A stretch of 64,000 bases of DNA from Psammoneis japonica (lineage: Eukaryota), in NCBI GenBank assembly GCA_008632985.1, contig QPGO01000261.1, positions 1 through 64,000 of the forward strand, read 5' to 3'. Under the pieces are notes generated by a model. That model was not told the origin of the DNA. It saw only the letters and a program-made list of their open reading frames with translations, and did no database searches. Shown here piece after piece: positions 8,601 through 58,437 of the stretch (positions are counted from its first letter, which is position 1; the number at the start of each line of letters is the position of its first letter). Made by a program: the position numbers and the translations under genes.

Positions 8601-8703
8601 CGATCCTTTCCATGAGAAATGAGTCATCTTCCCGTTGGAGAGGAGTGGGCATCTCCGGTGACACAAGTTCAATGTTGCATTCCCAACAAAATGCCCAAAG
8701 TGA

Positions 8704-21106: not shown

Positions 21107-21743
21107 CTTTTTGAAGACGAGACTTGTTTCCAAGCAATCCAACAATCCCAGGCAAGCAGCGCCAGTATCTTTTTCGTCTCACTCGATTTTGTGCAAGGAT
21201 GAGGAGTCCGTCACATTTGCTGGCTGCGTTGCCTCTCTGCGATGAAACCACTCGAATGGAGCAAATGTGTTGGTGTATCTGACGAGAAGAGACATTATCA
21301 AGGATGGGAATACTGTGTTGTATGAGGGATCATGGATAATGGCTCTTGCAATGGTGTCATGATAATGGCGAACGATGATTCTCCGTAGACGAGATGCCAA
21401 ATAATGCCGGAGGAGAGAACGGAAGAAGAATCATCATCGTCGTGCGTCAGTGGCGATTTGAGCACGGATTGCTTCTAATTCCTTTCTTTCAAGTAAAATT
21501 AGTACCACATTGTACGTAAAAAGGAATGAAAAGAAGGAATCTTGGGCGAGTGTATCTTTTGATCGTCATCACCCAATCAGCAAATTAATGTCACCGCCGC
21601 ACTCACTCGTCCATTCGTCCATTCATCCCGCCTCCATCCTCCATCACCCACCACGGCCACGTCGTTGTTGAAAAGGCCATTGTGGTTGCATGACTGTTGC
21701 TCTGTTCCAGCCAACATCACACACACACAAAACAACAAACAAA

Positions 21744-22774
21744 ATGGGAAAAAAGACCTTGGGTGCGAGTCTCAAGGGCAAAAAGCCCACCCATCGAGGC
21801 ACTTCAAAGACTGCCATCACGTCCAATCCGGGTCGGATCGGGGACAAACTGAAACGTTCGGAAATGTGCGGAAAGTGTCTCATGGAAAAGAAGCATCAAA
21901 AGAACATGGCTCATCGTCAACGTGCCAAGGAAGCCGAGGCACTCGGAGAAGAAGCTCCAGAAAAGCCCGCGCCGCAAACTCTGGAAAGCACGCGTGAGTT
22001 GGAGCCAACGTTGGCAAAACCAAACGATGAAGAAGTTGCCACCGACCAAGCTGAAGGTGAGTTTGCACCGCACTTTAACGATCAAGTGCAGCCCAAAATT
22101 CTCATCACCACATGACCACGTCCGTCGAAGCAGCTCTTTTGTTTTGTTGCAGACTTGCAAAGATTCTTTCGGCAGGCGCGCTTTTGTCCTCGCAAATTCT
22201 TCACAGTCAAGGAAATTTGTGGCTTTGCTGCCAATCGCGGCTTTTCCCATTTGACTGCATTGAGTGAAAAATCCAAGGCATGCAACGGCATGACCACATT
22301 TCGCGTTTGCGTGTTTGTGAAGGACACAACGTGACGGCCGGCCCCACGGCCTTTTTCAAGGTGAGCAACGTCATTTCGTCGACTGACATTCCCAACCACG
22401 GCTCCGCCACAAGTCACATTCCCGAATTGGTTTTGAGTGGATTTGGAACATGACTTGGACATCGTGTTGGGCATTTTTTGGGAAGTTTGTTTCCGCACAA
22501 TGCTCAGTTTCAGGGACGGCAGGTGGCGACCTTTCACAATCAGCGGGACTTCATCTTTGTGCGGCATCATCGACATGTCTTTGAGCCATCCAAGAATGTC
22601 AGCAAAGAGACAAAGCAACCTAAGACCAAGGCAAGATTGCAAGAACTGGGGCCTTGATTTGCTCTCAAGCTCCGGTGGATTCAGGAGGGTGCTTTTGACG
22701 CCATGTTTGGTGAATGTGAATGGATTCACAAGCGCAAAGAGATGGACATGATGCGCAGAAAGTTTCATTTGCAA
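21744..22774 (+). pseudogene. RPF1: RPF1 pseudogene, hypermutated
   Basis: Collinear with 2203-3228. CGA-to-TGA stops at 22113 and 22451, indels near 22300-22330, stop TAA changed to CAA, and Tyr codons changed to Cys or His. Confidence 0.95.
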
Positions 22775-24065
22775 TGAGATTTTGGCAGCACAGATGATGA
22801 TTGTCAACAATCTGTTGTTTGTAAGTTGTTTTTTTTTGTCCAGTGCTGCAACAAAGGATGCGGACACGGACTGGAAATGACCACCAGTTCGGTCAATGTG
22901 GCGCGCATCTTTGACATGCCGCTGTTTCGTCTTGCACTGTTTCATTGACAACTTGTGTGCGGCACTCTTCTGCCTTCCTCACTCTTGTCCACAAAACAGA
23001 ATGCCAGTGTGGCCCAGCCCACATCAGTGTGGTTTGGGGTCTCAATTCATGGTTGTTCTGTCAATCTGTTCGATGAATTCAACCAGCTGTGCTCTCCAAC
23101 CTTGCGGAATGCTGTCTTGCACACAGCCAGAGAGCACCGGTGCTTGACTTGATGGCAGCAAGATTCAAAAGTGGCTGCAGAGTTGCAAATCAAAATGCTG
23201 CAGAGCAAGACATGATGGATTGTTGGGAGTGCTAAAAACACACAACAGTGGCTTGCCTTTTGTTCGAAATGTCTTTCATTTGAAATGCTCAGCCAATCTC
23301 GCCATTGGTGAGCACTCCAGTTGCAACCTGCCTGCAAACACAAGTGAGAGTGAGCATGGCAAAAACCAGGCACTGGCAACAATCACCAAGAATGAACACA
23401 ACATCAATGTGGCACTCCAAACCAAAAGAGCTTGCTTGGAAGGGCGCCACGCAACAAGCGCAGAGGCAGGAGCAGAAGGGTGCATCATTTTGCTCTTGCA
23501 CTGAAAAACAGAACAGCAAGAGCAAATCTTCTTTCTGTTTGGCCCTTTCCTCTTTTCCAGAATGCTGCTCTCATTGTGGCCAAGCAACAAGTGGAAGCAG
23601 GTGCCAAGGTTGCAGGGTCAGCGGCCTGTTGCAGCTCTTGGCTTGGCACCAGCAGCAGCAGCAGCACAGCAAGCTGCGCCATCAAAACACAAAGGGTGCA
23701 GAGATGATGACCATGGGCTCCAGCTTTGCAAGGCACAAGAGGAGCCACAAAGGTGCTGGTGGCATGGAGCCTGAGCTCTGAGAAACTCACAGAAGCTGCT
23801 GTCATCTCTGGGGGCAAGCACGCAAGTTGGCGCATTTGTGAGCTGTGCATCTGATGTGGTGAAATGCAAACTAACTGCATCTGTGAAGTGGAAGCAAGAG
23901 CTCAGCTCCCTGATGTGGAAAAAGTGTTGTGGTCCAAGGCCAAATGATTGTGCAATTCTGGGCCATTCACAAGCAAAAGGTGCAGAGCACCCCAGTCTGC
24001 TGGTCAGGCGTGTGAAACATGCTGGTCTGGGCAGAGCTCCATGCAGCTGTGAGACCCAGGCCTCA
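22775..24065 (+). repeat. Diverged copy of the sequence downstream of RPF1 copy 1 (~3230-4400)
   Basis: Shared blocks such as GGTGCATCATTTTGCTCTTGCACTGAAAAACAGA at ~3872 and ~23479. Confidence 0.85.
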
Positions 24066-27000
24066 AGCAACTTGAAGCTGGCATCACAGGTGCGCTCCGG
24101 ACAAGCACACAGACCATCACCACGGCAACAACATGGAAAACTTGTCAAAAAACCACCAGAGCTGATGACGACATTGGCGTGGCAGACAAGGCATCTAAAC
24201 ATCAGCCGTTTTTTGGACCATTGCAACAGAAGCTCTGTCAGACCCACATCAGCACACCATTGCAATCATCCATTTGGAGACGCACATTTTGGTGAGAAAT
24301 GTTGAAACATGCCATTGCACTCCTTCATAACACCATGTTGCATGCAGATGATGCACCAACTTGCCATTTGCTGGATTTTTGGCACCCACTGAGTTAAAGT
24401 CTGAGTTTGTAAAAAGGCAAGCAAATTGAAAATCAAAATGGTGTCGTCAGCATGTCCAAGGCTCGCCACTTGTTGTCTCACTCAACTTTCTTGCCAGAGC
24501 AGCCAATTCTCGCTGTCTTTCCCAGCATGAGCACATTGACAAATCCAACATCATCATCACACAGTCAAGCCCATTTGAGTGGTCAATGGCATTGACCAGA
24601 TGAACATTTTTGAAGACTCTGACAAAGCAGCTGCGGTGCACTCAGCCAAGCATTTTTGAGCGGAAGAGAGTCAGGCGGATGGGAGTGAAAATGAAGAATG
24701 AAGTTGGCACATGGTTCAAGAAAAAAGCAGTGATGAAATGTTGACAAAACACTCTGATGCTGCTGTCACTCCACAGAATGATGAACAACAGCAAACAGAG
24801 CTCCTCCCTGGCTTGTGTGCACTCTAGATTGGTTGCAAAGACACAAACATCAAATCTGAAAATGGAAAAGTGTGGCTTGCAAATCAGTGCTCACGGATTG
24901 CTTCACCCATTTGCAGCATGAAACAGGGCAGACATGGTTGTCACGAGGTCAAAGACAAATTGGAAAGCAGAGCATTGCCATGAAATTGGTTTGTGATGAT
25001 GTTGTCATCCAGCCTTGGTGTCAAGAATGGGTCAATGTCAATTTCACCTCATCGCAGTGCAAGTCACGTGCATTGAATCCCATGGGACCCACTTGACTTG
25101 ACATTTTTGGTGGAACTGGCTAGACTTTGACCCCAGCCAGAGCCACAAAACACAGAAGACATGAGCATTGTTAGTCTCCCACCCTTTGGAACATTGTCTT
25201 GCAAGAACAAAACAGGCATGCATTGCTCATGGTGTCAGGCATTTGAAAATGGAGCTGACATTTTGCGGAGCACCTTTGTCACACGTGAAAGTGCAAGGGA
25301 CAATTTTCAGTCATGGCTCTGCAGCCAACGCAACCCTCTGCTTGCGACCCCAAAAGTCATCGGGAGCTTTGCACCAGCACGACATCAGTCAGCTGGAAAT
25401 GCACCTTGGCAAAAAATGGGGGGTTTTGTGATCACATGTGGAAGCATGGCATTGGGGCCCACAGCTGCCAGGCATCTGTTGTGCATTGTGAGTTTGAAGT
25501 TTGTGTTGACAACTTCTGGGCACCCCGTGTCTGCTGCAAGCAGCCAAGGCAAGTGTGACAAGCAGCACAGGAAGCCCCACAGGATTCTCTTTTGGCACAC
25601 CAACTTGCTGGTTCAACGCTCACTCCAAAGAGTTGCCGGCACTGCATTTGGTGCCCAACAATGTCAACACTCTGCTTGCAGTCAATTGATTGCTGCAAAC
25701 CTGCACAACAAGTGGCAGAGGAAGCAGCAGACCCAACAGCTGAGGTGAAAGATGTGGTTGTGGAAGAGACAACAAGAGCCGCTCACAGGCCCTCTGACCC
25801 AAAAAATGAAGCCAATGCCAAGAGCCACTTGCAGCCTGAGAAGAAGTTCCGTCCTTCATCACTGAACAGCAACACTCACAATGCAACATGCAAAGCTGTC
25901 AAAGAGAAGATCATCCATCAGCACATGCAGAATGTTGCAGATGGCATGATCTCAGAGCTGATGTCTGCAAACACTGTCAACCACACTCTTTTAAGTTGGG
26001 CAAAGCATTGAGGCTGTCAAGGAGCAAACTCAAACTGCTGCACTCTGCCTGCCATGCAGATGACACCCAGGTTGATGCGCGAGCACTCAATGATCAAGAA
26101 CACTGCCGCAGCAAACACGCGCCCCCACAGAAGGAAGGAATCTCTGATGTGCACAGTCCACACAAAGTTGTGCAATGAAAAACCTTGACCATGACAAGCA
26201 CTTCAAGTTCAGCACCTTCAGCTCATTTGTCCTGTCTCACATTGATTCAACCCAATGAACACCATGGGCACATGTGCAGGCTTTGAAGCAGAGTTGCAAC
26301 AACGGACATGAAGAAGTGCTCACGGCCACTCCAGAAAACAATGGTGCGTTTGAGTTGTGACACACAGCCAGCCCATTTCTGTGGCTGCTCAACAACACAC
26401 AATGATGCACATGACATCAGAGCTCCTTGTTGTGATGGTTTTTCATTGTTTTCATGGATGATTGAGCAATTGCTCAAACTTGCGCACCACAAGTTTGAGC
26501 AGTCTTCTGAGTTTGAGCAAATGGGCAATGCAAATTTGAGCAATTTCTCAAACTTTTGATGGCAAAAGCAAAGACCAGAACTCTCAATCATGGCCGTCAA
26601 GTCTTGCTTGGTGTGGGCTTCACTGCAACTCAACACACAGTTTGGCGCCAAAGCACAGCTTTCCGCCCCAGCTCCATGCTTCCACGTGCAAAAATTGACC
26701 CCCTGTTTTTAACCAAATGCCCACCTTGATTGACCAACAGCACACAGATGTGAAGTTCATGATGCTTTTGGGGTCCCAGAATGGGGGTGAATGTCAGTTG
26801 CTGGCCAATCACTGAAAATCGTCCCCCCACACTTTCACGTGCAACAAAGGTGCTCCATGAAAAGTCACCTCCATTTTGAAATGCCAGATGCCATGAACAG
26901 TGCATGCCTGTTGCATCCTTGCGCAAGACATTGGGTTAAAGAGTGGCTGTGAGACCAATGATGCTCACATGTTGAGCATTTTGTGGCTCCAGCGGGGGTC

Positions 27001-28400
27001 AAAGTCAAGCCAAAACTTCCAAAAAATTTGAGTTGAGAGTGGGTCCCACAGGATTCAATGCTTGTGACTTGGAGTGTGAGTTGACCCTTTCTCAACACTG
27101 AGACAGACAACAACAACATCACAAACCAATTTCATGGCAACACTCTGCTTTCTAATTTGTCTTTGACCTCATGACAACTGCACTTGACCTCTTGCAAGAA
27201 AGTTGAGTGACGCAACAAGTGACGAGCCTTGGATGCATTGACGACACCATTTTGATTTTCAACTTGCTTGCCTTTTTACAAAGTTGGAGCTCAACTCAGC
27301 AGGTGCTGGAAATCTGGTTGGTGGTGGGTGCATGAAGAATTGTCGTGCAACGTGCCATCACGACAAGCAAAAGGGTCCCACAGGATTCAATGCTCATGAC
27401 TCAGAGTGTGAGTCAACCCTTTCTCAACACCGAGACAGACAACAACATCATCACAAACCAATTTCATGGCAACACTCTGCTTTCCAATTTGTCTTTGACC
27501 TCGTGACAACTGCATTTGACCTCTTTCATGCCACAGACAGGCCAAGCAATCCATGAGCACTCATCTGCAAGCCACACTTTTCCATTTTCAGATTTGACGC
27601 TTGTGTCTTTGCAATCAATCTAGAGCACATGCAAGCCAGGGAGGAGCTCTGTTCACTGTTGTTTGTCATTCCACAGAATGACAGCTTCAGAACATTTTGT
27701 TGACATTGTTTGACTGCTTTTTTCTTGAACCACACACCAACTTCATTCTTCATTTTTGCTCCCATCTGCCCGACTCTCTCCCATTCAAGAACACTTGGCT
27801 GAGTGCATTTCAGCTGCTTTGTCAAAGTCTTGAATGAGATTTGTCTGGTCAACAACATTGCTCAAATGGGCATGATGACGTGACGATGACATGATGACAA
27901 CGTTGGATTTGTTGATGTGCTGATGCAATGAGAGTCGGCTGTGGCGGCAAGAAAGTTGAGTGAGACAACACCAAGTGGTGAGCCTTGGATGCATTGACAA
28001 CACCATTTGATTTTCAATTTACTTGCCTTTTTACAAACTTGGAGTTTAACTCAGCGGGTGCTGGAAATCCGGTTGGTGGTGGGTGCGTGAAGAATTGTCA
28101 TGTGACATGCCGTCACAACAAGCAAAAAGGCATGTTTCAAAAATTCTTGCTAAAATGCTTGTCTCCAACTGGACTTTTACAATGGTGCAACGTGTGGAGT
28201 CTGACAGAGCGACAGTTGCAAATGTCAAAAAATGATGATGGTTTAGACACTTGTTGAAGCAATGCAATTGTCGCCATTGTCGGTGAGAGATTGGATCAAT
28301 TTCCCCACGTTGTCACCACGGCGACAGTCTGCACACTCATCCAGAGCACACCTGCCATGCCAGTTTGGAGTTGCTCAAGGCCTGGGTCTCACAGCAGCTG
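24045..28400. repeat. Large diverged inverted repeat (arms ~24045-25460 and ~26660-28400; internal duplications in the right arm)
   Basis: For example, 24045 CAGCTGTGAGACCCAGGCC matches the reverse complement of ~28378-28400; 24780-24900 matches the reverse complement of 27545-27660; 25080-25460 matches the reverse complement of 26660-27060. Confidence 0.85.
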
Positions 28401-36770: not shown

Positions 36771-38324
36771 GTTCCCACCCCGACAATTTTGGCCACAAAA
36801 CAAATGCAATTTCGTTCTACACAAAATTCCTGCAGAAACTCTTGCACAAGAAAAATTGCACGTCTGTTTTCCATCCTTCAATTTACAGCCGCAATTGTCA
36901 GCAAATTACGATGACAGGTGTCGGTTGTCGCAAATTCTCTCCTGTGAATGTAATTTTCACGGCAAATTTGGCGTTTTGGGAGCTCGAACGTGCCACATCA
37001 CAAGCTCCCCATTTTTCTTTCTCCACTCCGATTGCACAACAACCATGATGGCTGCTGCTGTAAATGGACCCGTTCATGCACGAATGACCGTCCTGTCCAC
37101 GAAGGTGAGAATGTAGAGACAGGTTGGTGACACTGCGCTTGATGCGATCAAGTTGTCAGAATTGTGATTTTTTGTTGTTGTTGTGGCTTGTGATGACCAT
37201 GTTGACTGACAGCATTTTTGATGTCTTTCTTTCTCTTGCTCAGATTTCGCGTTGGGGGATTCTTCACAAACCATGCGTCTGCAGACTTGAGGCCGAATCT
37301 TCACAGCAATGTGTGATCTGATGTCACGTTGAGGGGGTTCTTTGGTGCATGCTCAAGGTTGTCACTTGATGGACTGTCACGAGTCAAGAACACAAGAATT
37401 TTGGTCACGTTGACGACAACAGCAAGGCTTGTGCTCCGTTGTGACAGAACACAACTGTGAAGAAGGCTGTGTGCACTCATTTCATCAATCTTGTTGCAAG
37501 TTTGGACAATGACGCTGGTGGGGGTCAATGTTTTGCACTGCGTTGTTGGCATTGTGCCTCACAGTGCCTTGCTCCATTGTCTGCAGCCCTTCTGTTGCTC
37601 TTTGAAATGGATTTGGGCCATTGGCAAACCGCAAGAGTTGAGAATGCTGGTGCCTTTTGGCACCTGACATTCTGCGGAAATTTCATTTGACAGTTTTGCG
37701 TGCTGCAGTCTCTCACTGCACGCCAATGTTTTTTTCTGCAACTCTTGCTGTTGACAGAGGATTGAACGTTGGTGTGTTTCTTCTGTCCTTCACTGGTGTT
37801 GTCACCAGTCTTGGGTTGCTGCAGAGCAAAATCGCAAAATGGGCAACGATTGTCCCTGACAATGTCATGGTGACTCTCTAGCTGGCAGCTCTCTAGAGCC
37901 AGCTAGCAGCAGAGAGAAGTGGTGTGAACAGTGCTGCAGCGTGGTGCTGCAGCGTGCAGCGTCCTCGCCGAGCTTGACATGAGATTTTGATCTTTTTTGC
38001 CGATCGAATTTGTTCCCAGCCTGACGCCCGTAAATGTGCAAATTTGGCCAAAACATTTGTTTCATGTCATGCGGCCGAAATTGTCAGGGTGGGAACGTGC
38101 CTCAGTGCAAACGCACGTAGAAACAACTTTGTGCTGGCACACCAAAAATGAACTTGGCAAGCTGTCTGCACATCTGTGAGCAACAAATGAAAATGAGAGA
38201 GGGGGGACGCGAGTGGTGCACACATTTTAGCTCACAACTCACTGCATTCTGCATTTGCCATTTGTTTTTTCGCGCAGCTTTTTTTGTTGCAAGAGACCTT
38301 GGGAGCGAGATGGACTTGGATTCC

Positions 38325-39480: not shown

Positions 39481-42400
39481 ATGTCAGCAGAAAACTGCCC
39501 ATTCAAACTCAAGCGTCCTGATCACTCTGAAGAAGAGCGACGCAAACACCAACTCGTGTCTTTTGAAAGCCCCATTGATCCTGACGATCCAGATGGGCTC
39601 AAAACTACGATCGAGGCACAAAAGCCAGCTTCAACTGAACCGGAAGATGTTCTCACCTTCTGGTCAAACTTCGATGAACTTGTCGACGATCTTGGCACGG
39701 CTGAAGGACAGCCACGTTTCCGACTTGTGACCAGACTTATGACCGGAACACCGAAAGACGACTGGGAAATCGTCACAAACGAACACAAAAACCGCGACCA
39801 AGTTGCATTCGATGCTTGTCGCGAAGAATTTCTACTCCAATGCATGGACAGAGAAATTGCCCTTGACACCAAGGAATGGCTTCAAAATCTCAAGAAGCCC
39901 AGGAATCAAACTGTCAAGTCATTTGTTGATGACATCCGTTGCTTTGACAAGTTGATCGACATCATGCCTGCGCCATCCGAAGACAACACCGAAAGGGTTC
40001 CGTCATTCACGGAAGCGGAATTGTCCGTGATCCTTTGAAAATGTGGACCCAGATCATGGGCCGAAACTCAGACTGAAGCCCGTCTTTGCAATTTAAACTT
40101 AAACGACCAAGCTCAATGCTACGAGAGTCTCCGACGCATGGAACAACGTGGTGACAAAAGGTCTGCCGACAACAACAGACGCAACAACAACCGGAGTCGA
40201 TGCAACAACGGTCGAAATGCGCGTCGTGGCCAGAATGACGACCAAAATCGTGATGCCAGGAATAGAAACCAAAACAATCGTGGACAAACATGTCCGATCC
40301 ATGGCGTTGTACATCCAAACGGTCAAGAGTGCAATGTCATCCGTCGTGAACATGAAAATTACGAGCGGAGCCGCGCAAATCGGAGCGCGCCAAATCAACA
40401 AAACAACTCTCGAAACGAGCCGACACATCACCATCCAACACGGAGTCGCACACGAAACGTTGAAAACAACAATGTGGATTCCAGAGCCAGTCGCTCCGCA
40501 TCAAACGACGCCGACAGCGTCGCGTCAGACGACATCAACGACATTTTTGAAGACGCCACATCTCTCCCAGACGATTCTGCTGAATCCGAGGTAGAAGACA
40601 ACCTTGCCACGGAAGCGCGTGTCCAGATGATTGATGCTCATTCTGGAATGCACAAGTTCCGCGTTGCCTCACTCGATGCCGGCGCAAATCGCAACTTTGT
40701 GAAGCGCTCAGCCCTTCGCGGAATTCCTCACAAAATCCGCAAATGTGACGTTCCCGTTAAAGGCCGTTACAGTGCCGTTAACTTGCGCGAAATTGCGACA
40801 CTGACATTGAAGTTTCCAGACTTCGCATCATCCAAGAAAGTTTCCTTCAATGCTTGTGTGGAAGACAAAGCCACAGGAAAACACGACATTGTCATCGGAA
40901 GAAAAACCGCCACAGAAATGGGACTCGTTTTTGATTTTCGACATCAAACAATCACGTGGGACGATGTTGCCCTGTCCATGTGATCTGAAGGTTCTTTCGA
41001 CCAAGTCGAGGTCAACGCGATTCATCCCGGCGATGCTGAGTTACCCAAGTTCTTCCAGAATGCCATCAACCGTCAGGTTTGGGGTGTGACGAGCAACACG
41101 CATGACAAGCGCAATTGTCGCGATGTGGTTTTACGCTGCAAACACCTTGATGATGATCAGCAGCACCAACTCATTGAGCTTTTTGGACGATGTCCGCAAC
41201 TGTTCGATGGCATGCTTGGAGCTGTGCCTGGAAAACCTGTCCATTTGACCCTGAAACCAGGATCACGCCCATGTTGTGCAAAAGCTCACACCATTCCGCA
41301 GGCGCCACATCCCATGGCTTGCAAAGAAGTGGACGAATTGGAAAAAATCGATGTCATTGCACGCAAGCTCCATTCTCCATGGGGAGCACCCTGTCTTTTC
41401 CGATCAAAGAAAAGCAGTGGCATCCGTTTCTTGTCCGACTTGCGAAAGCTCAACGAATGTCTCAAACGGCATCCATGTCCACCACCTGTCATCAACGACG
41501 TCGCATGGAAAATGAACGGATTTACCTGCGCGACTTGTTTGGACCTGAACTGAGGTTGTTGTCACTTTGTGCTTGACGATGAATCAAAAAAACTCTGTGG
41601 TGTCATCCTGCCGTGGGGCAAGCACTGTTGCAACCGCCTGCCACAAGGAATCAAACCAGCAAGTGACATTTTTCAAGCTTGCATGACAGACATTTTTCAC
41701 GACATGGAAGATGTCATGGTCTACATCAACAATGTCATCCTCTTTGCCAAGAATGACTTCAACCATCACTGCCAACGACTCAAACTCGTCTTGCAGCGGC
41801 TCCTTGCGAACAATCTTCACGCACACGTCGAAGAATCCCATCTTGCCGCCAAGACCATCAACTGCTTGGGCTGTGCCATGACTGCGAAAGGCATTCAGCC
41901 TCAAAAGAAAAAAATCCTGCCTTTGCTTTGCTTCGCTCGCCCTCAGAACCGTCGACAATTGCGCGGTTTCATCGGGTTCGTGAATTGTTGCAAAAAATTG
42001 TGGCACCGACGCAGCCACACTCTCGCGCCCTTAACTGCGCTGTCATTGGACAAAGTCAAATTCAAGTGGACTGACGTCCACACCGAAGCTTTCAATCAGA
42101 TGAAAAAATTGTGGCGCGCGAAATCCTCCTCCGATTCCCCGACTTCTCTCGACCTTTCAAGATCTATCCGGACGCGAGTGATTGTCAACTTGGTGCAGTG
42201 ATTGCTCAAGATTTTGATGATGGCGAATGGCCAATTGCACCCCACAGTCGAAAATCATCTCTGGCACAACGAAGCTGCACAATGATGGAAAAAGAACTGC
42301 TGTTGCTCGTCGAGACGACCGAAAATTTCAAGAGCATCCTTTTTGGCCATCGATGCTGCCTTTTTGCCGATCACAAAAACCTTGCATTTGACAAATTCAA

Positions 42401-43702
42401 GTCAGAGCGCGTCAAACGTTGGCGCTTGCTTCTCAAAGAGTGCGGTTGCTCTTTGAATGCTCGCCAGGCCACAAGAATGTCGTGGCTGATTTTTTGAGTC
42501 GCCACCCTGTCGTCCAAGTCGACCAAAGCGACCACAAGGAAATGACTTCATTGGAAATCGATCCTCAGACATTCCCCATTACTTTCGACATTGTCGCCGA
42601 CCATCAGAAAAAAGATTCTGCTCTCCAGCAGTGGCTCGACAAGTCTGAATCCTGCTCAGCCAAACCACTCAACAGAGAACAGATCATCCTTTGCAAAGAC
42701 AAGATTGTCCTCCCTCCAATGCTTTTTCCTGCAGTTCTGCATTGGCATCATGAAACTCTCTGCCATCCTGGTGCCAATCGCACCTGTCAAACCTTGGCTT
42801 CACATTTTTACATCCGCGACATGCAGACGAAAGTCCGTGCTTTTGTCCACAAATGCCACATGTGTTCCAAATCCAAGCGCACCACAGCAAACTGTGGTGA
42901 ACTGCCTCTTCCAGATGCTGTTTACAAGCCTTGGCAAGCAACTCAAGTCAATCTTTTTGGTCCCTGGACGCATGCTGACAAGAATGGTGCCGATCGCAAA
43001 ATCAGAGCCGTTTCGATTGTTGACATCGCAACCCGTTGGATCAAACTCGTGAACCACAAGTCCAAAACGTCTGAAGACATTTCACTTGTCGTTGATTGCG
43101 AGTGGTTTTGTCACCATCCGCGACCAGAAATTGTTGTTTGTGACAACGGCTCTGAATTCACTTCCGAGCCCACAGATCTCCTCTGCAGTTGTGGTGTTAA
43201 ACTGAAACCCACAACAATCAAGAATCCTCAAGCCAATGCGTTCATTGAACACATTCATCAAGCAACAGCCGATTCTCTCCATGCGATGGATCTCCCTTCT
43301 TGCAATTGTGATGAAGACACAATTCATGGAATTTTGCAATCCGTTGCATGGGCCTTGCGCAGCACCTGCCACACTGCCCTCATGTCATCTCCCGGACAAA
43401 TTGTCTTCGGTCGAGACATGGTCATTTCCGCTGCTTGTCTTGCAAACTGGAAAATGATTGATGCCCGTCACAAGCGCGATGTCCTGCGCAACAATCTCCA
43501 TGAAAACGCAAAACGTCTTGCTTGCGACTGCAACATCGGTGATCAAGTCTTCGTCATGACCAAAGACATCCAACGCAAACTCAACACCAAAGATGGTCCC
43601 TTCCGCATTGCACGTGTCCATGCCAATGGAACCGTTGCCATCCAGTGCTCGCCTCACGTCACCGAACACATCAACATCTGCCGTCTTCACCCTGTCTTCT
43701 AA
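39481..43702 (+). pseudogene. gypsy gag-pol (Gag, protease, RT, RNase H, integrase)
   Basis: Protease LDAGA..HDIVIGR; RT DLRKLN, RLPQG, YINN (from YIDD); RNase H DASD..EKELL..DHKNL; integrase HPG..CHMC, CDNGSEF, ANAFIE. In-frame TGA stops at 40036, 40981 and 41551; frameshifts near 42110 and 42455. Confidence 0.93.
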
Positions 43703-44996
43703 CGCCTCAATTGGGGAAGCGAGCGCCGAGTGTCACGGTCATCTGTGTTCATTCGTGGATGTCAGCCCGGTGTCAAAAGGATGTCAACGATGACACTTTC
43801 TAGAAACCTCTTCTCTTTTCTCAATGCATCTTGATGCCTCTCGAAAGATTGTTTCTTAGCATTGATTCTACAAGATTTCGGAGCAGCCGAATCTCTTTCA
43901 TTTCTTCTCACAACATTGGCAACAGTCAACTTTACAACGCCATTGGTTCCTCCTCTTTTAGGTGGAACTCTCTAGATCGAAGTCTGAAACCGAAAGATTT
44001 TGGATTGCTGCCCTCGCCACTGTCAGAAAATAGAGCCATGACGATTGCCTGCACCAATCATTTTGCTGCATTTTGCGCCGGGCGTTTGAATTAATTGCAA
44101 CACATGACGGTTGTTTCGGTGCACACTTTTGCGCAACCAACGCGACATGACCAATGTGCGTCAGTGTGTGGTGCTGGTTGTTTTGCTTCTGACCGTTCTG
44201 TCTTCTGTGAGGTTTCATGAGGCTGTCTCTGCACATTGATGTTGTCCAGTTGTGCATGTTGATGTTGTCTAAGGCAAGCTGCGTTGGATTAAGTGAGTGT
44301 GGAAATGTACGAAATTTACGCGTTGTTGCAGTTTCTTTGCCAAACAGTCAGCCCTTGTTCATGGCCATGCTCAATCCGCGGCGGCTTAAGTGAAAGTCCA
44401 TGTGCATGCATTTTGCTTGTTGATGCGGTTGTCTTTGCCAAACAGTCATTTGCAACTTGCTCAATTCCATTGTTTCTGGCCATGCTTCTTCTGAAGGGAC
44501 TTTGCTTGCTCCTTCTCCTGCTCTGCCATCTCCTCCTCGGTGAAAAATCTCCCCGACCGCTGTGGAATCACCGCTGCATGTGCTGCCTTTAGCTCCTCCA
44601 TGGTTGAGTCATCCTTGGGCGCGACCGTTGTTTCCACATGATGACTGTCCGCTGTCGTGTTGTCTTGCACAAGTGCAGAAGTGACATCAAAATTTCCCGA
44701 GGTGAGGTCAAACGCCACTCTTGCTTCTTCCAAGGTAATCTCCTCTTCGTCTTCCTTGTTCATCAATGACTGAAGAAGTTCCGCACGTGTCTGCACCTTT
44801 TTCTTGTCCTCACCAGTTTTCTTTGGCTCATCTGCCTTCTTTGTTTGTTGTTGCAAATCCATGTTTTCTCTGTTGCTGCATTTTCTGTGACGGTTGCGTT
44901 CGCGTTTCTTGGTTTGTTGGTTAAAATCCATTCGACGTTGTGTGACGCATGTGCAGATTTCCACGCAATGTGCTGATCTAATTGAAACACATCACT

Positions 44997-47900
44997 TTAC
45001 GAAATTTCCACATTTTTGCGGTTGGGGTCGCCAAACAGTTGCACAGTGGTTGAGCATCCTAATCCAATGTTTGCGCACTGCATCAACATTTCTGCGTGCT
45101 GTTGCTGAGAAAAACATGTGGCGCTTCTCTCCTTCATGAGTCTTGTCAAGGCTTCGCAGCCTTCTGGGACCTTGCATTTTTGCAGGTCCTTGCTTGGTGG
45201 CTTTCGCATGAACAGCCCTTCTCTGGTCTTTGCTCTGGAGAGCACAACATGCACCCAATTCTGAGTGTAGCTCCAAGAGTGTGCAAACAACTGCGGGACT
45301 CCACTCCCTTGCAGTTTGTGCCCTGCAGTGGCATTGTTGATGACAAACGGCAGCTGGGTTGCCTTCAGTTGGAAAGTGTGCCTTTGTTTGTCGCCTTCTT
45401 CTAAAATTAGGCTGGGCTTGGCGATGCAAGCCCTGAAAGCATTTGTTTTTGGCTCAACTAAAAACTTCGCGGGGTCGATGCTTTTGTTGCAGTGTTCCAA
45501 TGCATCGTGGTCTACCTGACTGGCAAGCACAGCAGGAATGCTGATGTTGTTGTCTAAAGTCACCAGTCTTGGTTCCTGTCCTGGTTTGAGAACGACCTCG
45601 TCAACAGTGGCTTGCGTTCCATTTGCTTGACCGTTTGCTGCATTTTCATTGAAAGGTGTCATGACTCTGCATCTTCTGTAAATTCGTAAGACTGGGTCCA
45701 TTCTTCCTGATTGCATGATGACGTCTCCTTCACCACAGTTGTTCCAGAAGCTGTTGCAAACCGGAAATGGTTGGCAGAGTCTCGTGCCATTCTGCACCTG
45801 CAAGTCGTCACTGAAAATCAACATTGAGTCAAGGACGTCTCCATCTCTTCTGTGCAGTGTTTCTGCTCTTTTTTCGAATGGGCCAGTGTTGATTGCATCT
45901 CTGTCCTTGTTTGCGTGCGCAGCATGGCGGAGGTCACTGGACAGATCATCTTCATTCTGAACCACTCGTTCGTTGATGTGCTCTACATCGTCAACTGCAA
46001 TCTCACCAGTGCGGAATCTCTCAAGCAGTTTTCCCCATGATGGATCGTCTTTAAACCTGTGCACACCACGAAGTTCTATGCAGCAGCTGATCCACTCGTG
46101 AAACTCGGGACATGCATCTTTGCACAGTGGTTTCACTCCTTTTCCGACTGGCTCTAGTTGCCTGAGGTCACCTGCAAAAACAATGTTGACACCACCGCGC
46201 GGCTTGCTCAATTCGCTCTTCAATGCTGTTAAATTCTCATGGAGTTTTTCTAGTTCTCTCTTGCTTGCAAAAGAAATCTCGTCTGCCACCAAAAGTCTCG
46301 TGTCTGACCATGCTTCAATTTGCTCTTCGGTTGTTTGCTTTCTTCTCATGAGGCATGCAACTCGGTGGATTGTGTCCCCTTTGAGAACAGTCGCAGCCAC
46401 TCCGGTCAGTGCAGTTGCTCTGATTGTGCTTGTTGTGAACGGCTGCTCAACAAGCGAGCAATGCTCTCTTCCGCATTCCACGACGAGGTCCATTGTGGTT
46501 GATTTGCCACTTCCACCTGCACCATGTAAAAAACACACAAGTTGCAACGTTCCACGTCTTTGCACTTCCACGAGTTTCTTCAATCGGCGAAGGTTTGTTG
46601 CGAATTCGTGTCTGCCATTTCTCCTGTTAAGTCCATTGCGTGACGTCTTGTCTTGAAGAGCGTCTTGGCAGCAAGTGAGCACAAAGGTTCCTGCTAGAAT
46701 TTCAAAGGCACGCTGCTGTTGCCCATCCAGTCTTGCTTTCCTGGCCCAGTCTACGATGCTCACTGCAGATCCGTTTGCTTGACGTACATCGACGTGTTCT
46801 TCCAAACCTGTTGTGTCCTCAAACGACCTTCTTGTTCTTTGCGTTCTAGTCAGTGTCACTCAAACAATGTCATCTCTTGACAGAGGTCTGCTGTGGATGT
46901 GTTGTTGCACTCCTTCATTCTGGTCTTCCTCGTCGGTGTCATCGCCGCCCTCTAGATTCTCAAAAAGTTGTCGTTCATCAACCTGGCTTTCCTCGTTTGG
47001 TGGGTCAGTGTGCATGTCTGCCAAGCATTTGCAACCACCCATGTGTGAACCTTTCTGTCTTGCACGTTTGCTGCTCAAATGCGCAGGAATGACTGCTTGG
47101 TTGCTCAACCCAATGTCATCGTCTTCTGGCTGCTCTGCCATTTCTTCCAAAAGTGCATCCAGCAGTTGACCCTGAATGGCGCCTGAAAGACCTTCTTCCT
47201 CGTCACTTTCGCAACAGTCAAACGCAACGTCAGCAGGTCTAAATTGCTCCGTCTTTCTTTGAAGATCGTCAGATGTGCTTTTGAGACGAAGGCAGTTGGA
47301 CTTGGCATCCTGCAGGTTCTGCAAGAAGTTCAAGTTTTCCTCTGCAATGACACCGGCTGCTGCGGAGAGTTGGAATTCACACAGGCATGCATGGGTCATT
47401 GGTTTGAGTTCCGTCATTGTTCTGCAAGGTGCAAACAAGGCCAATGCCAACTTGCAGCACAATTCTTTGTCCAGTGTTGTTGGTTGCTGCGGATCTGTGA
47501 GGCAACTGCCAAACTTGGCTGCATCAGGAAAATCATGCTGAAGTGCTTTTAACAATCGCGGTTGCTGTCGCTGTCTGACACCTTGAAGAAACTTGTTCTT
47601 CGTTGAATCACAAGACAGGTGCCTGTGTGCTCTGTTGTCGAACATCATCATGCCATGTTCGTTTTTCCTTGTGTTGCGAAGAACTTCGCACTCACTAAAA
47701 AATGCAAACGGACTGAGATTCTCCAGTGCTGTTGGACGACATGGGCAGTGCAAGGCCTGGCATTGGAAGAATGGTGCATCGCCAAAATGGGCTACAGTCG
47801 CAGACACTTCGTCTCTTTCTAGTGTGCTGACAATGTCTTTCAAGGGGCACCATGCGGTCAAATGAGATTCGATGAAACGGCTTCCGTTCCTTGTCATGTA

Positions 47901-50727
47901 AGACGCAAGTGGTGGTCCAATGACGTTCGTCTTGTCATGCGAACAAGCACCCCATGTGAGACGTCTGATTGCTTCCGATGCATCAGATGCATGTTTCCGT
48001 AATTCCGTTGCCATCCTGTTTGCAGTTTGAAGCACTTCGTCGTACGATGCAGTGTCATCTTTCTGGGCATCTTTTAGGATGCACTTGGTCGTGCATTGAG
48101 CAGACGGTCCAGGCATCAACAAAGCAATGTTTGTGTTGCATGTCAGTTTTGATCTGCTTGTTGCAGGGCATGACACGTCTTGAAAAGCATTGTGCTTTCT
48201 CCTCTTCGGAACAACTTCCTTCACGTGCCAATGCGCAAAAGTTCCATCCCAGCTGAACCACTTTATCTGAGTGTCATCTGCATTCCTTGCCAAATCATTT
48301 GGACACAAAGCAGCTGGTTGCCTGTGACGGCAGTCACCCAGTTTGAGCTCCTCTCATTTCCTTTTCCTTGACTGCATGTCCAGCTCCTCGTGTGGGGTTT
48401 TTTCACGCATTTTGTGCAACTCTGCGCATTTGGGAAAACACGACTTGTAATGTGCATGTGATGGTTGTAAGCTGCGTCCGGCACACATGCCTCCATTGTC
48501 CCTTGCGGACCACTTCGCTGGTGTTGCACACACATTGTTTTTAGTTGCTTTGCATGGTTGTCTGGACAGCGAGTCAGGCCAGGTGCACGGTGCCGTGACT
48601 GTAAAAAGCTTTCTACAAACTCGACGTTTGTCCAGTGCTTGGTGCAGTGACGACAACAAGCAAACATTCCGTTCTTCGACTGCTGGCCGTCTTTGTGCCT
48701 CAGGTTTCTTAGCTGTTGGTCGTCCACTGCTTTTGGAGAGGTGCGATGCATTTTTGGCACTGTGCAGTCATGATCGAATGCTTCACGCAACGCGTTAGTG
48801 CTGAAGTCCTCGCTGCAGATTAATTCCATGCTGCAGATCTTCTGAACTGTGTTGGCAAGGCACTCAGCACCTTCGCGTCGGATCTGTCTTGTTGGCGAAT
48901 GCAGTTTCTCTCTTGCATTGTGATCGATGCGAGCCAGATCTGCATGTGTCCGTGCACTGTCAGACGTCCCTGCTCCTCAACTGTGGCTAAAAATGTGGCT
49001 GGCCTGCCAATGCAGAAGTTAAAGTTTTCTCTTGGTTGGTCAGTGCTCAGATCCCAACCCACTGCCTCTTCTGTTGCAATGTCAAACAAGCACTCAAGTG
49101 CAAAGGCTGTTAGACCGGGAAACTTTAGACGCAGTTCATTACGTTGCTTGGCCCTGCTGGCAAGAATTTCGTCTGTCAGTTGTGTCACGTCTTCGTTTGG
49201 GTCCAGGATGACACCCGAGCACAGTTGCACAAGAAACGAATTTGCATCGTCCGGACTGACGGTTAAGAAAATGCCACCCTGACCAAAATGATGCTGACAA
49301 GTTTCGGCGTTTCTCCTCATTTTCTTTGCTGCTTTGTCACTGTGTGGCAGAGACGCAGATGCAATGTCGAGTGCGCGCAAAAAGTGGTGCCCGAGTCCAT
49401 GGTCTCTTCTCTTGCCCAAGTTGCGATCACAAACAGCTCCATCCACATCGTCCGCTGTCAGTTCGTTTGCAAACTGTGCAGCCTGATTCTTGTCCCTGAC
49501 TTTCCACCCTGTGCTCTGCAGCATCCTTTGCTTCATTGTCAAGTTGTGGCATGTTAACACGAAGAGCTGCTCGTGGAAGTGAGGCTGGGAAATCCGTGCC
49601 AAGTGGTCGGCACAGTGTGCAAGGTTGGTGCCATCTGCAAGACTTCCGTCTTTCTTCATTCTCGTCTCATTGATTCCTCCTCTGCCAAAAGGAAACTGCA
49701 GCAGACACGCGTCAATGAAGTTGTTGCCTTTGAAATCACTCGCAGATTCTTCAGACAACTGTGCTTGCACCTCTAAATCAAATCCGTTGGCAGCAGCTTC
49801 GTGTGCAAGATCTTTGAAGCAGTCCAGGTTGCGCTGACCACCGGTCGCAGGAGACATGGTTCCATCAGGAAAGTGAACATGAAATGACTCTGAGGTCTCA
49901 ATGTTCGTGTTTTCTCCTTCTTCTTTGCTGGTGCTGTCGACAAGCACGGGATTCCGCAGATTACGCCCAACTTCGTCTAGATTCATCTGTTGGCACACCC
50001 ACTCTTGGTTGTGGTGCAACAGCCATTCCATCGCCCTTGGCATGCAGTGCGCCCTAATTCTGTTCTTTGAACGCGCAAGTTGTCTTTGCTCCGGAGTCAT
50101 CTTTCCAGTCATCAGTGCAATCACATTCTGATGTAAATTCAGCACGTCGAAGTGCACAACAGTTCTTACGATGCTTTGCATCTTGACTTTGCAGTGTGTC
50201 AGACTTCCCTGAAGCTTCTTCTGTTTGCCGCCAAGGCAACTGAAGCAGCATCCGCATGTTTTCACTGGTGTGAGCATTGCCAATTCTGCTTCGGTTAGAG
50301 ACAACAGTTTGTGCGGCAGGGTGCCGAAACAGCAGTTGTTCGCTGTCGCGTGCATTGGCACAATGGCTCTTCCCAGGCTTCTTCGGCATTCGCTGCAGCA
50401 AGTGAATCCATCGACGCGTTGTCTGTCTTCCTGTGCTGCGTGTTGGGCACGGGGAGAAAGCAGCAGGTCTTTGATCCAATCAGCATCTTCATGCTCTGCA
50501 GTGCAGCAGGACTTGAGACGATCAGATGTGCTGTTCCAGTCTGAAGGGGTGAGTGAGTTTCTTGCTGATTCCAATGTTTCGAGCGGCAAGTGGCAAACTT
50601 CTCTAGGTTTCAGCAGAATGTCACAGACTGAACATGCGTGTGGTCTAAATTCTCCATCTCTGTGTGGACAAAGCATCTCAAACTTTCCATTGATTGCATT
50701 GCAAACACGGGAGTTGGCCTCGTCCAT
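44997..50727 (-). pseudogene. Helitron Rep-helicase (HUH endonuclease plus PIF1 helicase), fragmented
   Basis: CLLQFPFGRGG, IFLTVSPDD, HUH motif VEEQGRLTVHGHMQIW; PIF1 motifs HGAGGSGKS, ALTGVAA, DEISF, GGVNIVFAGDLRQLEPV, HKLQG, VVLSR. In-frame TGA at 46860 and frameshifts at ~48300-48900. Confidence 0.92.
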
Positions 50728-50819
50728 TTTAATTTAAGCTGACACTTTGGCTCAACAAATTTCAAGAAGTCACTCAGCAAAAACAGTTGTTTTTTCAGTG
50801 CGATCACCGTGAAGCTGCG

Positions 50820-53168: not shown

Positions 53169-53253
53169 GTTTTTTTTTTTTGCCGGTGCAGTGTAAATTT
53201 GTAAATGTTTGGCAAACTAAGTGTCGATTGCAACTCAGCTTTCCTCTGTCTCT

Positions 53254-56004: not shown

Positions 56005-56226
56005 CAGTGCAAAATAACTTGCTAAATTTGCGTAAATTTGCTGACTTTCTGCACTCAGGCGACTGTGCAGCTACCCACCAATTTGCTAGATTTGCGCAAA
56101 TTTGCCGACTTTCTGTTCTTCCTCGTTCCCATTTTTCGAACCACAACTGGGGCTGCGCCTTTCCAACTGATGCAACAGTTTCGCTGAAAAACACCAACAC
56201 ACTGTGCTGCTAATTTGCAGAGCACA

Positions 56227-57789
56227 CTACACGGCAGAGCTTCTCCCCCCCGACTTGGGGAGTAGACGCGATTTCTTCTTCCGATTCATGGCACCCGACG
56301 TCGCCTTCCTCTTCTTCTTCTTCTTCTCTGATTCATCCAAGTTGCATCTGGAGAGAAATTCCTCCCCGGGCATGATTCGCTTCGTGACTGCCAAGCACCC
56401 ATCGTTGTAGAACTCGCAGTTGTTGTCCATGTGTTGGCTTGCCTTGATCTTCTTCTTGTCCTTGAACAACTTGGTGGCATCGTTCACGCAGTGCATTCCG
56501 AGGTAGAGTGGATGGGAATTCTTGTTCCCTGGACCGCTAAAATCAAGCGGTTTTGGCTCCACTGTGACGTGGCAGCCCTCGCTGTCACGGATGGTGGAGC
56601 AGCACACGCTGTGGTCTTCTCCAAACTTGCTGTCGTGGTCGCACCACGAGCAGCTCCTTGTTGCACCGGGCACCCTGGGGCCCACGTAGATTCCAACCGT
56701 GCTGCCTTTCTGGAACTGGCGCAAAGCAAAAAAACCAATGCCTGCGCCCCTCCGTTGCGACACGCGCAGCTCGCCCACCTCCACCTCCTTGGGGCCTGCA
56801 GAGCGAACGGACTTTTTGAGGCAAAACAACGCAGGTTGAAGTGACACAGCGCCTCATCCAAATGTGCACACTTCTGCACTGTCTCTCTTCATGAGGCAGA
56901 CCAGTGCGAGCAACCACCCCGCTTCGAAAGCCTCGACGGCGGTCTTGAACACTTTGTTGCTCTTCGGCGTCGAGTCTGGGATGCCCCTCTCGCCGACTTC
57001 CATGCGGCACCTCCACACCCACTTGCAGCGTTCGCCGTGAGCATTCGCAACGGCTTTAGGGTCTCTCCTGATGCACCCCAGTTCTCCCAGCGCGGGGAAC
57101 CAGAGGTCGGGATCATTCGGCGCATCCTTCATCAGGCACATGGACTCCTGGAAATTATCGGATTTTTCATGCCGCAACACCCAGCCCCACAAGTCGAGTG
57201 ACGGCTCGTTGGGGTCCGGAAATTGCTTTCCTTCTTCTTCCTCTTCTGCCGTTGCTTTCGCGACCACTTTGGCCGCGGGCTTGGCTGCCTCCTCACTTTT
57301 GCCGCTGCAAAAAGGTGGGACCTCCGGTTTCACAAAGGTGGCCTGATCACCCACCAACTCGATCTTGCAACCGGCCTTGAGGAGCTGCTCGGTGGTGCAA
57401 CCCAGCTGCTGTGCTTCATTCCAACCACAAATTTGAAAGGTTGGCTCCGGCGGCACGGCTTTCTCCCTCTTTTCAGTTTGGGACTGCGCTGGCTTCTCTG
57501 ACATCCTTGCGCATTCGGACTCAATGGACACACCCTCGGCACTTCCCTCGGCGCCAAGTGCAGTCATGGCAGCTGCCGCCATGTCTTCGGTGCCCGTGAG
57601 TTCTGCCATGACTTCCGGAGCTGCCACATCCTCTGCTTTGCCAGACGCAACGATGTTGTCCTCCACCATTCTAGCGCCGTAATGACAGAGCTGCACTGAC
57701 TGCTGTGTGGTGTGCTGCTTTGTTCCAGCCGTTGGCGATCCACATCCTTCTGCGCACACAAACGTGTGACACTTTGCACCAAATTCCAT
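56227..57789 (-). pseudogene. SET-domain lysine methyltransferase-like protein (Helitron cargo) with one in-frame TGA
   Basis: VSQRRGAGIGFFALRQFQKGSTVGIYVG, MHCVND, NNCEF, TKRIMPGEEFLSRCN. ORFs 57789-56854 and 56847-56227 are in the same frame. Confidence 0.8.
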
Positions 57790-58437
57790 GTGCCTGACGC
57801 ATCAGGATGCAGTGCGTCTGCACCTGTCTACATCCGTCTTCACTGCTGCACGCACTGCGGTGCTGCAGCGCACCCTTTCAAACCTTCATTGATGTTCATT
57901 TTTTCCTTCCTTTTCCTTTTCTCTTCTTCTTCCATCTGGCTGGGAGGAACTGCTGGACAGCCGGTGTCATTTTACACTGCTGCTTGGCGCCACTTGGCAC
58001 AACAAAATGATCAGCCTCCAGCGCGAACCTCGTTTTGCCGAGTGTTTCACGTCCCAAGGCTGAGGGCTTGTGGGAGGAGCAGGTTGGGAGTGTGTCATCT
58101 GTCTCGATGCAGCAAGTTAGGCATGCTGGACATTCAGTTGCGCAAGGACAATGACGTTGGGCATGGCCAGATTACAATAAAGTGACAAGGACCAAACTGG
58201 CAGAGAAGTGTGGAATCGTTCTCTTCTTTTTAATTTGTGGCAAATGCAAACAGTCAGTTGTGTTTGCAAGTTCGTCGAAAGGTTCTTCAAAGCAGGACCC
58301 ACAGCATTTTTTCTCATCTTAGCGACTTTCTTAAAGCTCTGGCGTTGCAAGGAGCTCCTCAAAGGCTAATCCTTCATCATGCCTGAACAACAGTACAAAG
58401 TTCTGTTGGCTCGTATACAAGAGCGATTTAGTGTTAA

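Follow-up and report, generated by a model that had tools for sequence, protein, structure and literature searches.

How does a stretch of tens of kilobases of algal DNA come to be almost without the dinucleotide TpA? The question is raised by positions 1 to 64,000 of contig QPGO01000261.1 from the diatom Psammoneis japonica (GenBank assembly GCA_008632985.1), the 64-kb window analysed here, in which DNA of normal TpA (TA) content alternates with DNA that has nearly lost it. An earlier, sequence-only reading attributed the loss to an enzyme-like mutator that recognises 5′-TAY-3′ on either strand and spares YTAR (R, purine; Y, pyrimidine). Our analysis establishes that the A:T pair of TpA was changed to G:C on both strands, in place and within bounded domains. 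It is highly probable that this was the work of a domain-limited mutator obeying a graded rule set by the base 3′ of the mutated A. To the fuller reading, in which the mutator strikes silent domains of diatom DNA and its agent is an adenine deaminase, we assign a probability of about 0.55.

TpA-poor blocks and their edges

Ratios of observed to expected dinucleotides (O/E) were computed per kb. In the TA-normal DNA (1-3400, 16650-21586 and 58400-64000) TpA O/E is 0.4-0.7, with CpG at ~1 and TG/CA at ~1.1-1.3. In the TA-poor blocks (Table 1), chiefly the one that begins at 21587, TpA O/E falls to 0.02-0.24, TG and CA rise to 1.15-2.0 and CpG is variably lowered (0.19-1.37). The main block (36.8 kb) taken as a whole has O/E values of 0.10 for TA, 1.61 for TG/CA and 0.64 for CG, as against 0.53, 1.16 and 1.00 in unmutated DNA, and the per-kb TA values of 22001-58000 (0.02-0.24) stand clear of those of 17001-21000 and 58001-64000 (0.37-0.70). 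All 17 windows of 22001-38999 have a TA O/E of 0.02-0.19, with TG and CA mostly at 1.5-2.0; by the sequence criterion of the preprint on Bigelowiella natans discussed below, 16 of these windows have TG and CA values that average at least 1.52.

The block edges are sharp and respect genes, the erosion ending within ~100-400 bp where intact flanking genes begin. On the left of the main block the final TA of the preceding DNA is at 21586 and the next is at 22076, and on the right TA density is restored at ~58320-58400. Two kinds of host gene adjoin these edges, one encoding RPF1, a Brix-domain protein, and the other a protein with LRR, Roc and TIR domains. The edge near copy B lies in the divergent promoter of that copy (21587-21708), another lies ~110-260 bp past the stop codon of RPF1 copy A and a third ~700 bp beyond the 3′ end of an LRR-Roc-TIR gene. 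Such positions would fit a silent-chromatin mark or the protection of active units. The erased block 11200-16650 also contains an assembly gap of 161 N (13434-13594).

An RPF1 copy mutated in place

The LRR-Roc-TIR gene and RPF1 form a cassette that is present three times in the window (1-4255, 16942-23866 and 59123-64000; 78-93% identity). In cassette copy B, which spans the domain edge, the LRR-Roc-TIR gene is normal, while the RPF1 copy, starting ~530 bp beyond the start of that gene, is saturated with changes. Alignment of RPF1 copy A (2153-3408) with copy B (21694-22951) gave 1244 aligned bases and 151 differences, which, read from A to B, include 34 A>G, 30 T>C, 24 C>T and 23 G>A. Only one of the 32 TA steps of copy A, a TTAA, is kept in copy B; 13 have become CA, 11 TG, one CG and six something else, so that 31 of 32 are changed and 24 of these read TG or CA. 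Not one of the seven Tyr codons of RPF1 survives in copy B, five having become Cys and two His. At these seven sites Tyr is found in 30, 29, 30, 9, 30, 30 and 29 of 30 orthologues, and because the orthologues keep Tyr at most of them, the direction is fixed: copy B is the derived one and was changed where it stands.

The counts given by the sequence-only reading for the RPF1 coding sequence were reproduced. All 10 TA>TG changes are at TAC or TAT; 8 of the 11 TA>CA changes (with a double change at 3153 counted) are at RTA, and the other three, at 2277, 2661 and 3006, are synonymous third positions (ATT>ATC once and TTT>TTC twice). Since TAY makes up 20 of the 25 coding TA sites to begin with, the 10 of 10 is weak by itself (P~0.06, hypergeometric, by hand). 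At sites with TAY on one strand only (YTAY and RTAR), the TAY strand is the one mutated in 10 of 13 cases (binomial P=0.046, by hand).

The three LRR-Roc-TIR copies are intronless, 85-90% identical and TA-normal even at silent sites, so duplication is not the trigger. Nor can selection protect synonymous or untranslated TA when 31 of 32 sites are removed next door, and the process must therefore be physically confined.

Among RPF1 sites 2167-3324, TA>TG and TA>CA changes are clustered (8 runs against 12.9 expected, P=0.03), and three events on the 'wrong' strand fall within CA runs. These strand-coordinated runs were not reproduced in the long inverted repeat (P=0.79) or a third repeat pair (P=0.25), and are a weak hint of mutation in strand-coordinated bursts.

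A graded flanking-base rule

TA sites were counted in the 10 strand-symmetric NTAN classes, in 46.4 kb of mutated blocks and 14 kb of unmutated DNA (Table 2). No ATAT and no ATAC/GTAT is left among the 234 TA that survive in 21601-58400, and 121 of the survivors (52%) are YTAR, as against 93 of 490 TA sites (19%) in unmutated DNA, which bears out the remark that survivors are mostly of this class; the CTAG-rich example offered for it is present (Table 1). The comparison of NTAN densities that the sequence-only reading had proposed gives mutated-to-unmutated ratios, per base, of 0.024 for RTAY, 0.147 for RTAR and YTAY together and 0.46 for YTAR. Three blocks, tested one by one, all have an NTAN mix unlike that of unmutated DNA (chi-square P=1.6e-10, 5e-24 and 1.4e-7), and survival in them is 0.02, 0.03 and 0.01 for TAT, 0.07, 0.22 and 0.11 for TAC, 0.15, 0.35 and 0.17 for TAG and 0.20, 0.46 and 0.23 for TAA.

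Table 2. Counts of TA sites by strand-symmetric NTAN class
Class	Mutated blocks	Unmutated DNA
ATAT	0	35
ATAC	0	82
GTAC	12	34
ATAG	5	48
ATAA	14	80
CTAC	38	53
GTAA	63	65
CTAG	30	37
CTAA	65	36
TTAA	47	20

These counts were fitted with a Poisson model in which each strand has a rate set by the base 3′ of the mutated A and the two strands are summed. The four log-survival rates are 3.1 for T, 1.1 for C, 0.6 for G and 0.12 for A, with a deviance of 13.6 on 6 degrees of freedom (df). Equal depletion of all classes, the outcome that would contradict any context rule, is rejected with a deviance of 337 on 9 df. When 33 unmutated Helitron loci (189 kb in all) serve as a second baseline, the rates come to 3.12, 1.32, 0.47 and 0.38, the four-rate deviance is 16.9 and the ranking of models is the same. 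The products point the same way, the ratio of RCAR plus YTGY to RTGR plus YCAY being 1.31, 1.62 and 1.40 in the blocks and 1.04 in unmutated DNA. The context specificity is thus real, acts per strand and is graded, TAT >> TAC > TAG ≥ TAA.

TAT is lost first in partly mutated stretches. Relative to baseline, the stretch 9377-12091 has ratios of 0.09 for TAT, 0.44 for TAC, 0.36 for TAG and 0.41 for TAA, that is, TAT is depleted ~10-fold and the others ~2.4-fold, and it has the appearance of an early phase of the process. In four other partly mutated loci (L002, L064, L067 and L023) TAT is at 0.20-0.38.

Between the RPF1 copies AAT>AGT is found at 9 of 40 sites, whereas the opposite change is seen at 3 of 37 and unmutated controls have 0-2 per comparison (0-5%). 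This modest excess implies that a 5′ T is not absolutely required, and suggests an influence of the 3′ T also where A is the 5′ base.

Nature of the agent

Near-total loss, a strict dinucleotide, a reproducible order of flanking bases and sharp edges are unlike spontaneous damage or drift, and for these reasons we infer a sequence-selective enzyme, probably guided by chromatin state. It would strike silent, transposon-rich domains and turn the A:T pair of TpA to G:C, giving TA>TG, or TA>CA when the other strand is hit; the fate of each NTAN is set by the sum of the rates on both strands, with a 3′ base order of T >> C > G ≥ A. On grounds of simplest chemistry, the most likely agent would be a DNA adenine deaminase that converts A to inosine, which is read as G, and the process may be of the same kind as that live in mutation-accumulation lines of B. 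natans. An agent of TadA/ADAT2 type would be a protein of the deaminase fold (HxE-PCxxC) working on DNA; no deaminase domain was found among the 66 ORFs (open reading frames) of the window that were scanned.

TA>CA is the complement of TA>TG, and the sequence data therefore fit a thymine-centred chemistry equally well. An enzyme would modify the T of TpA in silent chromatin, for example by oxidation to 5-hydroxymethyluracil or 5-formyluracil, and the product would mispair with G and yield T>C; its motif would read A-T*-A >> G-T*-A > C-T*-A ≥ T-T*-A. In dinoflagellates 5-hydroxymethyluracil favours TpA, and 5-formyluracil mispairs with G. Nothing in the analyses made here pointed to such a base in diatoms, and the preprint on the phenomenon argues for adenine deamination instead, also without proof. 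We consider the thymine route unlikely, though a serious candidate.

Error-prone repair is improbable. In this explanation methylated transposon DNA is repaired again and again at deaminated 5-methyl-CpG, and a polymerase like Pol eta, whose error motif is WA (W, A or T), is drawn in and leaves WA>WG errors. The domain is indeed CpG-poor as well, with a CG O/E of 0.19-0.6 over 23-38 kb; 24 of the 87 CpG of RPF1 have turned to TG or CA in copy B, and the AAT>AGT excess is of the expected type. If such a polymerase were at work, both TA and AA should mutate, but AA is not depleted (O/E 1.24-1.25 in mutated blocks and 1.18 in unmutated DNA) and only AAT is modestly affected. Loss is near total at 31 of 32 RPF1 sites, and it is equally strong at 40-44 kb, where CG O/E is 0.86-1.37 while TA O/E is 0.06-0.16. 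TpA loss is accordingly separate from CpG decay, which is a second process in the same blocks.

A strictly binary rule, with TAY the sole target and the surviving YTAR untouched ancestral sites, is slightly less probable again. The RPF1 counts and the enrichment of YTAR among survivors are what it predicts. A model with only Y and R rates, however, has a deviance of 135.8 on 8 df (97.6 with the second baseline) where the four-rate model has the far lower values given above; TAC survives 3-8 times as often as TAT; and in RPF1 copy B two of three YTAR sites and three sites on the TAA strand are mutated. What stands of the motif first proposed is a trinucleotide specificity that operates on either strand; its binary form does not, TAG and TAA being lost too, and YTAR is spared in relative terms only, being itself depleted about two-fold.

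Changes within repeat pairs

Repeat pairs inside the domain differ from each other by the same swaps. Double differences of the CA/TG type, frequent in the long inverted repeat (Table 1), number 5 in 270 and 8 in 491 bases in other pairs and 0-2 in two unmutated controls, and the two long terminal repeats (LTRs) of the retrotransposon relic differ by T[A/G] twice and by CA/TG once. These differences indicate mutation after insertion, with the proviso that such swaps may also stem from CpG. The flanks of the CA/TG-discordant sites were uninformative (R..Y 10, Y..Y 8, Y..R 7, R..R 13; n=38), probably because CpG-derived sites are mixed in.

A different origin of the changes would be A-to-I editing of transposon transcripts by an ADAR-like enzyme, fixed by reverse transcription and reinsertion. 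A 5′ U/T preference is ADAR-like, as the preprint also notes, and one element of the domain is a retrotransposon. ADAR prefers a 3′ G, whereas the 3′ preference here is T>C>G, and to our knowledge ADARs are confined to animals. Editing of RNA should reach retro-copied sequence alone, but a host-gene pseudocopy, a Helitron, LTRs and DNA without recognisable coding domain have all been changed in place and on both strands. As the LTRs came to differ from each other in situ, and the two arms of the inverted repeat likewise, RNA editing was rejected as extremely unlikely.

Authenticity, activity and metagenomic parallels

Contigs built from the reads of sequencing run X1, which may be the assembly's own sample, cover 30 of 30 bins of 17001-37000, with a word depth of ~68 where coverage looks single-copy, and the pieces listed (0.5-2.1 kb) differ from the window by 0-4 letters each. 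A base-calling artefact is unlikely, because assembly from shared 31-letter words depends on accurate reads. Foreign DNA can stand out as sharply bounded compositional blocks, and modified bases can mislead some base callers, but the X1 contigs, the in-place change proved by the RPF1 paralogues, a GC content barely raised (0.496 in mutated and 0.484 in unmutated DNA) and the presence of the signature in unrelated metagenome assemblies led us to reject artefact, foreign TA-poor DNA, selection against TA and GC-biased gene conversion as having next to no likelihood. Of two further runs, X2 covers bins in 17001-22336 and, in the rest of the stretch compared, one bin at a depth of 1.4, and X3 covers none; they give no evidence on expression.

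The process may still be active. Four of the 15 differences between reads and assembly in 21.6-37 kb are TA/TG (at 24329, 30083, 30924 and 36908), though only ~55 TA sites are left in these 15 kb; two further differences look like cross-mapping of paralogues, and alleles, or drift of the strain or culture, could look alike. Activity of the B. natans type would mean new events at ~1e-7 to 1e-6 per site per generation in culture lines, of which these four differences are no more than a hint.

The signature recurs, with a TA O/E of 0.03-0.13, in four (Table 1) of the 73 unrelated contigs from metagenomes in which related Helitrons are present. In contig L066 the 3′ half is TA-free, with a sharp internal edge at which normal DNA gives way to TA-free DNA within ~250 bp. 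Pooled, the four pieces (15.5 kb, 50 sites) have values of 0.047 and 0.042 for TAY and of 0.117 and 0.108 for TAR, a difference of ~2.5-fold (P=0.0027). The preference for Y over R is thus general and the excess of TAT over TAC is firm for this genome only; the latter may be lineage-specific. Among the 73 metagenome loci no unmutated relative was closer than ~70% nucleotide identity.

Several points weigh against the reading that we favour. In the pooled metagenome pieces TAT (0.047) is lost no more than TAC (0.042). The four-rate model leaves a misfit (P=0.034 and 0.0097 with the two baselines), the survival estimates assume an ancestral NTAN mix like that of the flanking genes or of unmutated Helitrons, and the direct strand test in the paralogues is small (10 against 3). 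A TA-normal element lies within a mutated block (4861-5684), so that the process is either not continuous or selective. From sequence alone, A>G on one strand and T>C on the other are not distinguishable. The flank rule is also unlike that of the known candidate deaminases TadA, ADAT2/3, amphioxus ADAT2 and ADAR; as far as we know, the natural substrates of ADAT2/3 never have U after A34. According to PMC10354150, adenine deamination in DNA has been demonstrated for just one natural ADAT2, that of amphioxus, which prefers GAA and not TA.

Consequences for encoded proteins

Because Tyr is encoded by TAT and TAC, while TAA and TAG signal stop, relics in the blocks lose Tyr to Cys and His and keep long false ORFs. 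Tyr makes up 0-1.0% of block ORFs and 1.9-2.4% of unmutated genes, and Cys 2.5-5.7% and 0.6-1.6%, respectively. The preferential loss of Tyr that had been predicted is evident in RPF1 and in the Helitron relic, whose Rep part has no Tyr in 637 amino acids and whose PIF1 helicase part has 2 in 620. Of 14 PIF1 columns at which at least 60% of 30 homologues have Tyr, the relic keeps Tyr in two and has Cys in six, His in five and Arg in one; residues of other types are mostly conserved at 59-100%, Ile reaching 50% and Met 25%.

The prediction extended to the catalytic tyrosines of RT (reverse transcriptase), HUH and SET enzymes. For HUH it holds, since the catalytic tyrosines of a Rep relic without any Tyr cannot be intact; a sequence search of the PDB with this relic gave 0 matches. 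It fails for the RT, where the box YINN, which we take to be the YxDD motif (41554-42201, plus strand, within the Pfam RVT_1 match), retains its Tyr and has both Asp changed to Asn; the first of these changes would be consistent with CpG>CpA decay. No SET domain was found among the 66 ORFs scanned.

Between 3400 and 58400 there are 109 stop-to-stop ORFs of at least 130 amino acids, on both strands and often overlapping, most of which are surely not genes; their length follows from the near absence of TAA and TAG. There is a practical warning in this, in that TA-free DNA can lead annotation astray through long false ORFs and through 'proteins' with no Tyr and much Cys and His.

Genes and elements of the window

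Table 1. Features of the window and of metagenome contigs with the same signature
Feature	Position	Strand	Basis
Main TpA-erased domain, with transposon relics and one captured host-gene copy	21587..58400		dinucleotide O/E; TA positions for edges
TpA-erased block directly downstream of intact RPF1 copy A	3400..4620		only 4 TA between 3342 and 4625
TpA-erased block	5700..10000		TA O/E 0.04-0.14 per kb; context order as in main block
TpA-erased block	11200..16650		TA O/E 0.04-0.07; edge at 16229/16656
RPF1 (Brix domain) copy A, intact, unmutated, reference state	2170..3228	+	Pfam Brix 1.4e-27; 352-aa (amino acid) ORF
RPF1 copy B, pseudogene inside main domain	21711..22772	+	TA, CpG and Tyr changes; three CGA>TGA stops
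LRR-Roc-TIR gene copy B, unmutated	17348..21178	-	Pfam LRR, Roc, TIR; TA O/E 0.41-0.70; ~400 bp from domain edge
LRR-Roc-TIR gene copy C (TIR part), unmutated	59527..61926	-	Pfam; paralogue alignment; TA O/E
Ty3/gypsy-type LTR retrotransposon relic	39139..43944	+	LTRs 39139-39379 and 43725-43944; Pfam RVT_1, RT_RNaseH, Integrase_H2C2, rve
Helitron relic	44997..50733	-	Pfam; Rep/Helitron_like_N 48820-50733, PIF1 helicase 44997-46859
Long inverted repeat, arms differing mainly by CA/TG swaps	24046..28395		30 CA/TG double differences in 932 aligned bases
Partly mutated stretch, 904-aa ORF, no Pfam family	9377..12091	-	TAN ratios against baseline
Small TA-normal element with 37-nt terminal inverted repeats	4861..5684		terminal repeats 97% complementary; TA-rich island 4626-5660
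Surviving TA example, all in CTAG	37875..37906	+	direct reading
Almost TA-free metagenome pieces	L005:1-7761 (7.8 kb), L013:500-3907, L021:1-1752, L066:2900-5493		TA O/E 0.03 (L005)

The protein encoded by RPF1 copy A is 65-85% identical to the relatives listed, of which the named ones are diatoms (Ditylum, 74%; Thalassiosira oceanica, 73%; further Eucampia, Aulacoseira, Nitzschia, Fistulifera and Chaetoceros); the best match, at 85%, is unnamed. A protein atlas returned for it just the label 'Brix domain', without a taxon of use. The LRR-Roc(GTPase)-TIR copies contain tandem LRR units of 84 nt (28 amino acids) that differ in number among copies, and the cassette looks like an expanding gene family of innate-immunity type. 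Besides the elements in Table 1, the TA-poor parts hold repeats and long ORFs without a Pfam family. The small element with terminal inverted repeats has TAT at 2.4 times the baseline although it lies inside TpA-erased DNA, and either was inserted later or escapes the mutator.

Comparison with known systems

The closest parallel is the chlorarachniophyte Bigelowiella natans, in which 231 of 302 mutations in the lines studied fell in integrated giant-virus and virophage regions, 230 of the 231 being A>G/T>C (Mettrop et al. 2026, bioRxiv 10.64898/2026.01.13.699255). The preprint states that the GC-biased mutations were all on TpA, arose at ~6e-7 per site per generation and occurred in some lines only; the genome has 124 clusters of 1-kb windows that are TpA-poor, rich in CpA and TpG and enriched in transposon domains (RT, DDE transposase); and the authors propose an ADAT2-like adenine deaminase with a role in defence (10.64898/2026.01.13.699255). 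Both systems show A>G/T>C almost only at TpA, giving TpG and CpA, in blocks of foreign or mobile DNA, which in the diatom comprise a Helitron, an LTR retrotransposon, repeats and one host pseudocopy. They differ in lineage, B. natans being a rhizarian and the diatom a stramenopile, in extent, the nucleocytoplasmic large DNA virus block of B. natans having a Rho of 0.45 whereas O/E here is 0.02-0.1 and near saturation, and in that a host gene copy has been swept in here as well.

We found no report of TpA erosion or hypermutation in diatoms in the literature searched, most subscription journals being outside its coverage. The phenomenon is the diatom case of a mutator described once, in another lineage, and both the flank rule and the edges that follow genes go beyond the published main text, which has no flanking-base analysis, though its Table S2 may hold contexts (10.64898/2026.01.13.699255). 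A just-described and unexplained TpA>TpG/CpA mutator is thereby extended from one chlorarachniophyte to the diatoms, a major algal group, and its end state is seen, tens of kilobases almost without TA. The graded, additive flank rule and the sharp edges narrow the search for the enzyme and for its targeting, and a natural editor of A to G, or of T to C, in DNA would interest base-editing research.

CpG methylation decay operates in the same blocks and also gives TG and CA, but it cannot remove TA. ADAR hyper-editing shares A>G and a 5′ U preference with the process described here, and differs in having an RNA substrate, an animal setting and a 3′ G where we find DNA changed in place and a 3′ T. 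TadA, ADAT2 and the laboratory adenine base editors share the A>I chemistry and a 5′ U/T, and TadA also a 3′ C, its natural site being UAC in tRNA-Arg; the best site here is TAT, with TAC second, and the UAC analogy drawn by the sequence-only reading can serve as a lead only.

Fungal repeat-induced point mutation, or RIP, is likewise a transition mutator that resembles a genome defence, depends on sequence context, wrecks transposons where they stand and can be traced by its dinucleotide scar. RIP makes TpA (CpA>TpA), whereas here TpA falls and CpA and TpG rise, and duplication sets off RIP, whereas in the window the three LRR-Roc-TIR genes have been left untouched and the adjoining RPF1 copy is saturated. 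Tentatively, and with the odds somewhat against it, diatoms and chlorarachniophytes might share a natural DNA editor that is guided by silent chromatin and whose deamination of adenine at T-A-T/C strips transposons and integrated viruses of their TpA. If so, TAT >> TAC > TAR would be its fingerprint and would be expected among the 231 de novo events of B. natans, and the editor would be the first natural genome-defence adenine deaminase acting on DNA, an A:T>G:C counterpart, widespread in marine algae, of fungal RIP and of APOBEC defence.

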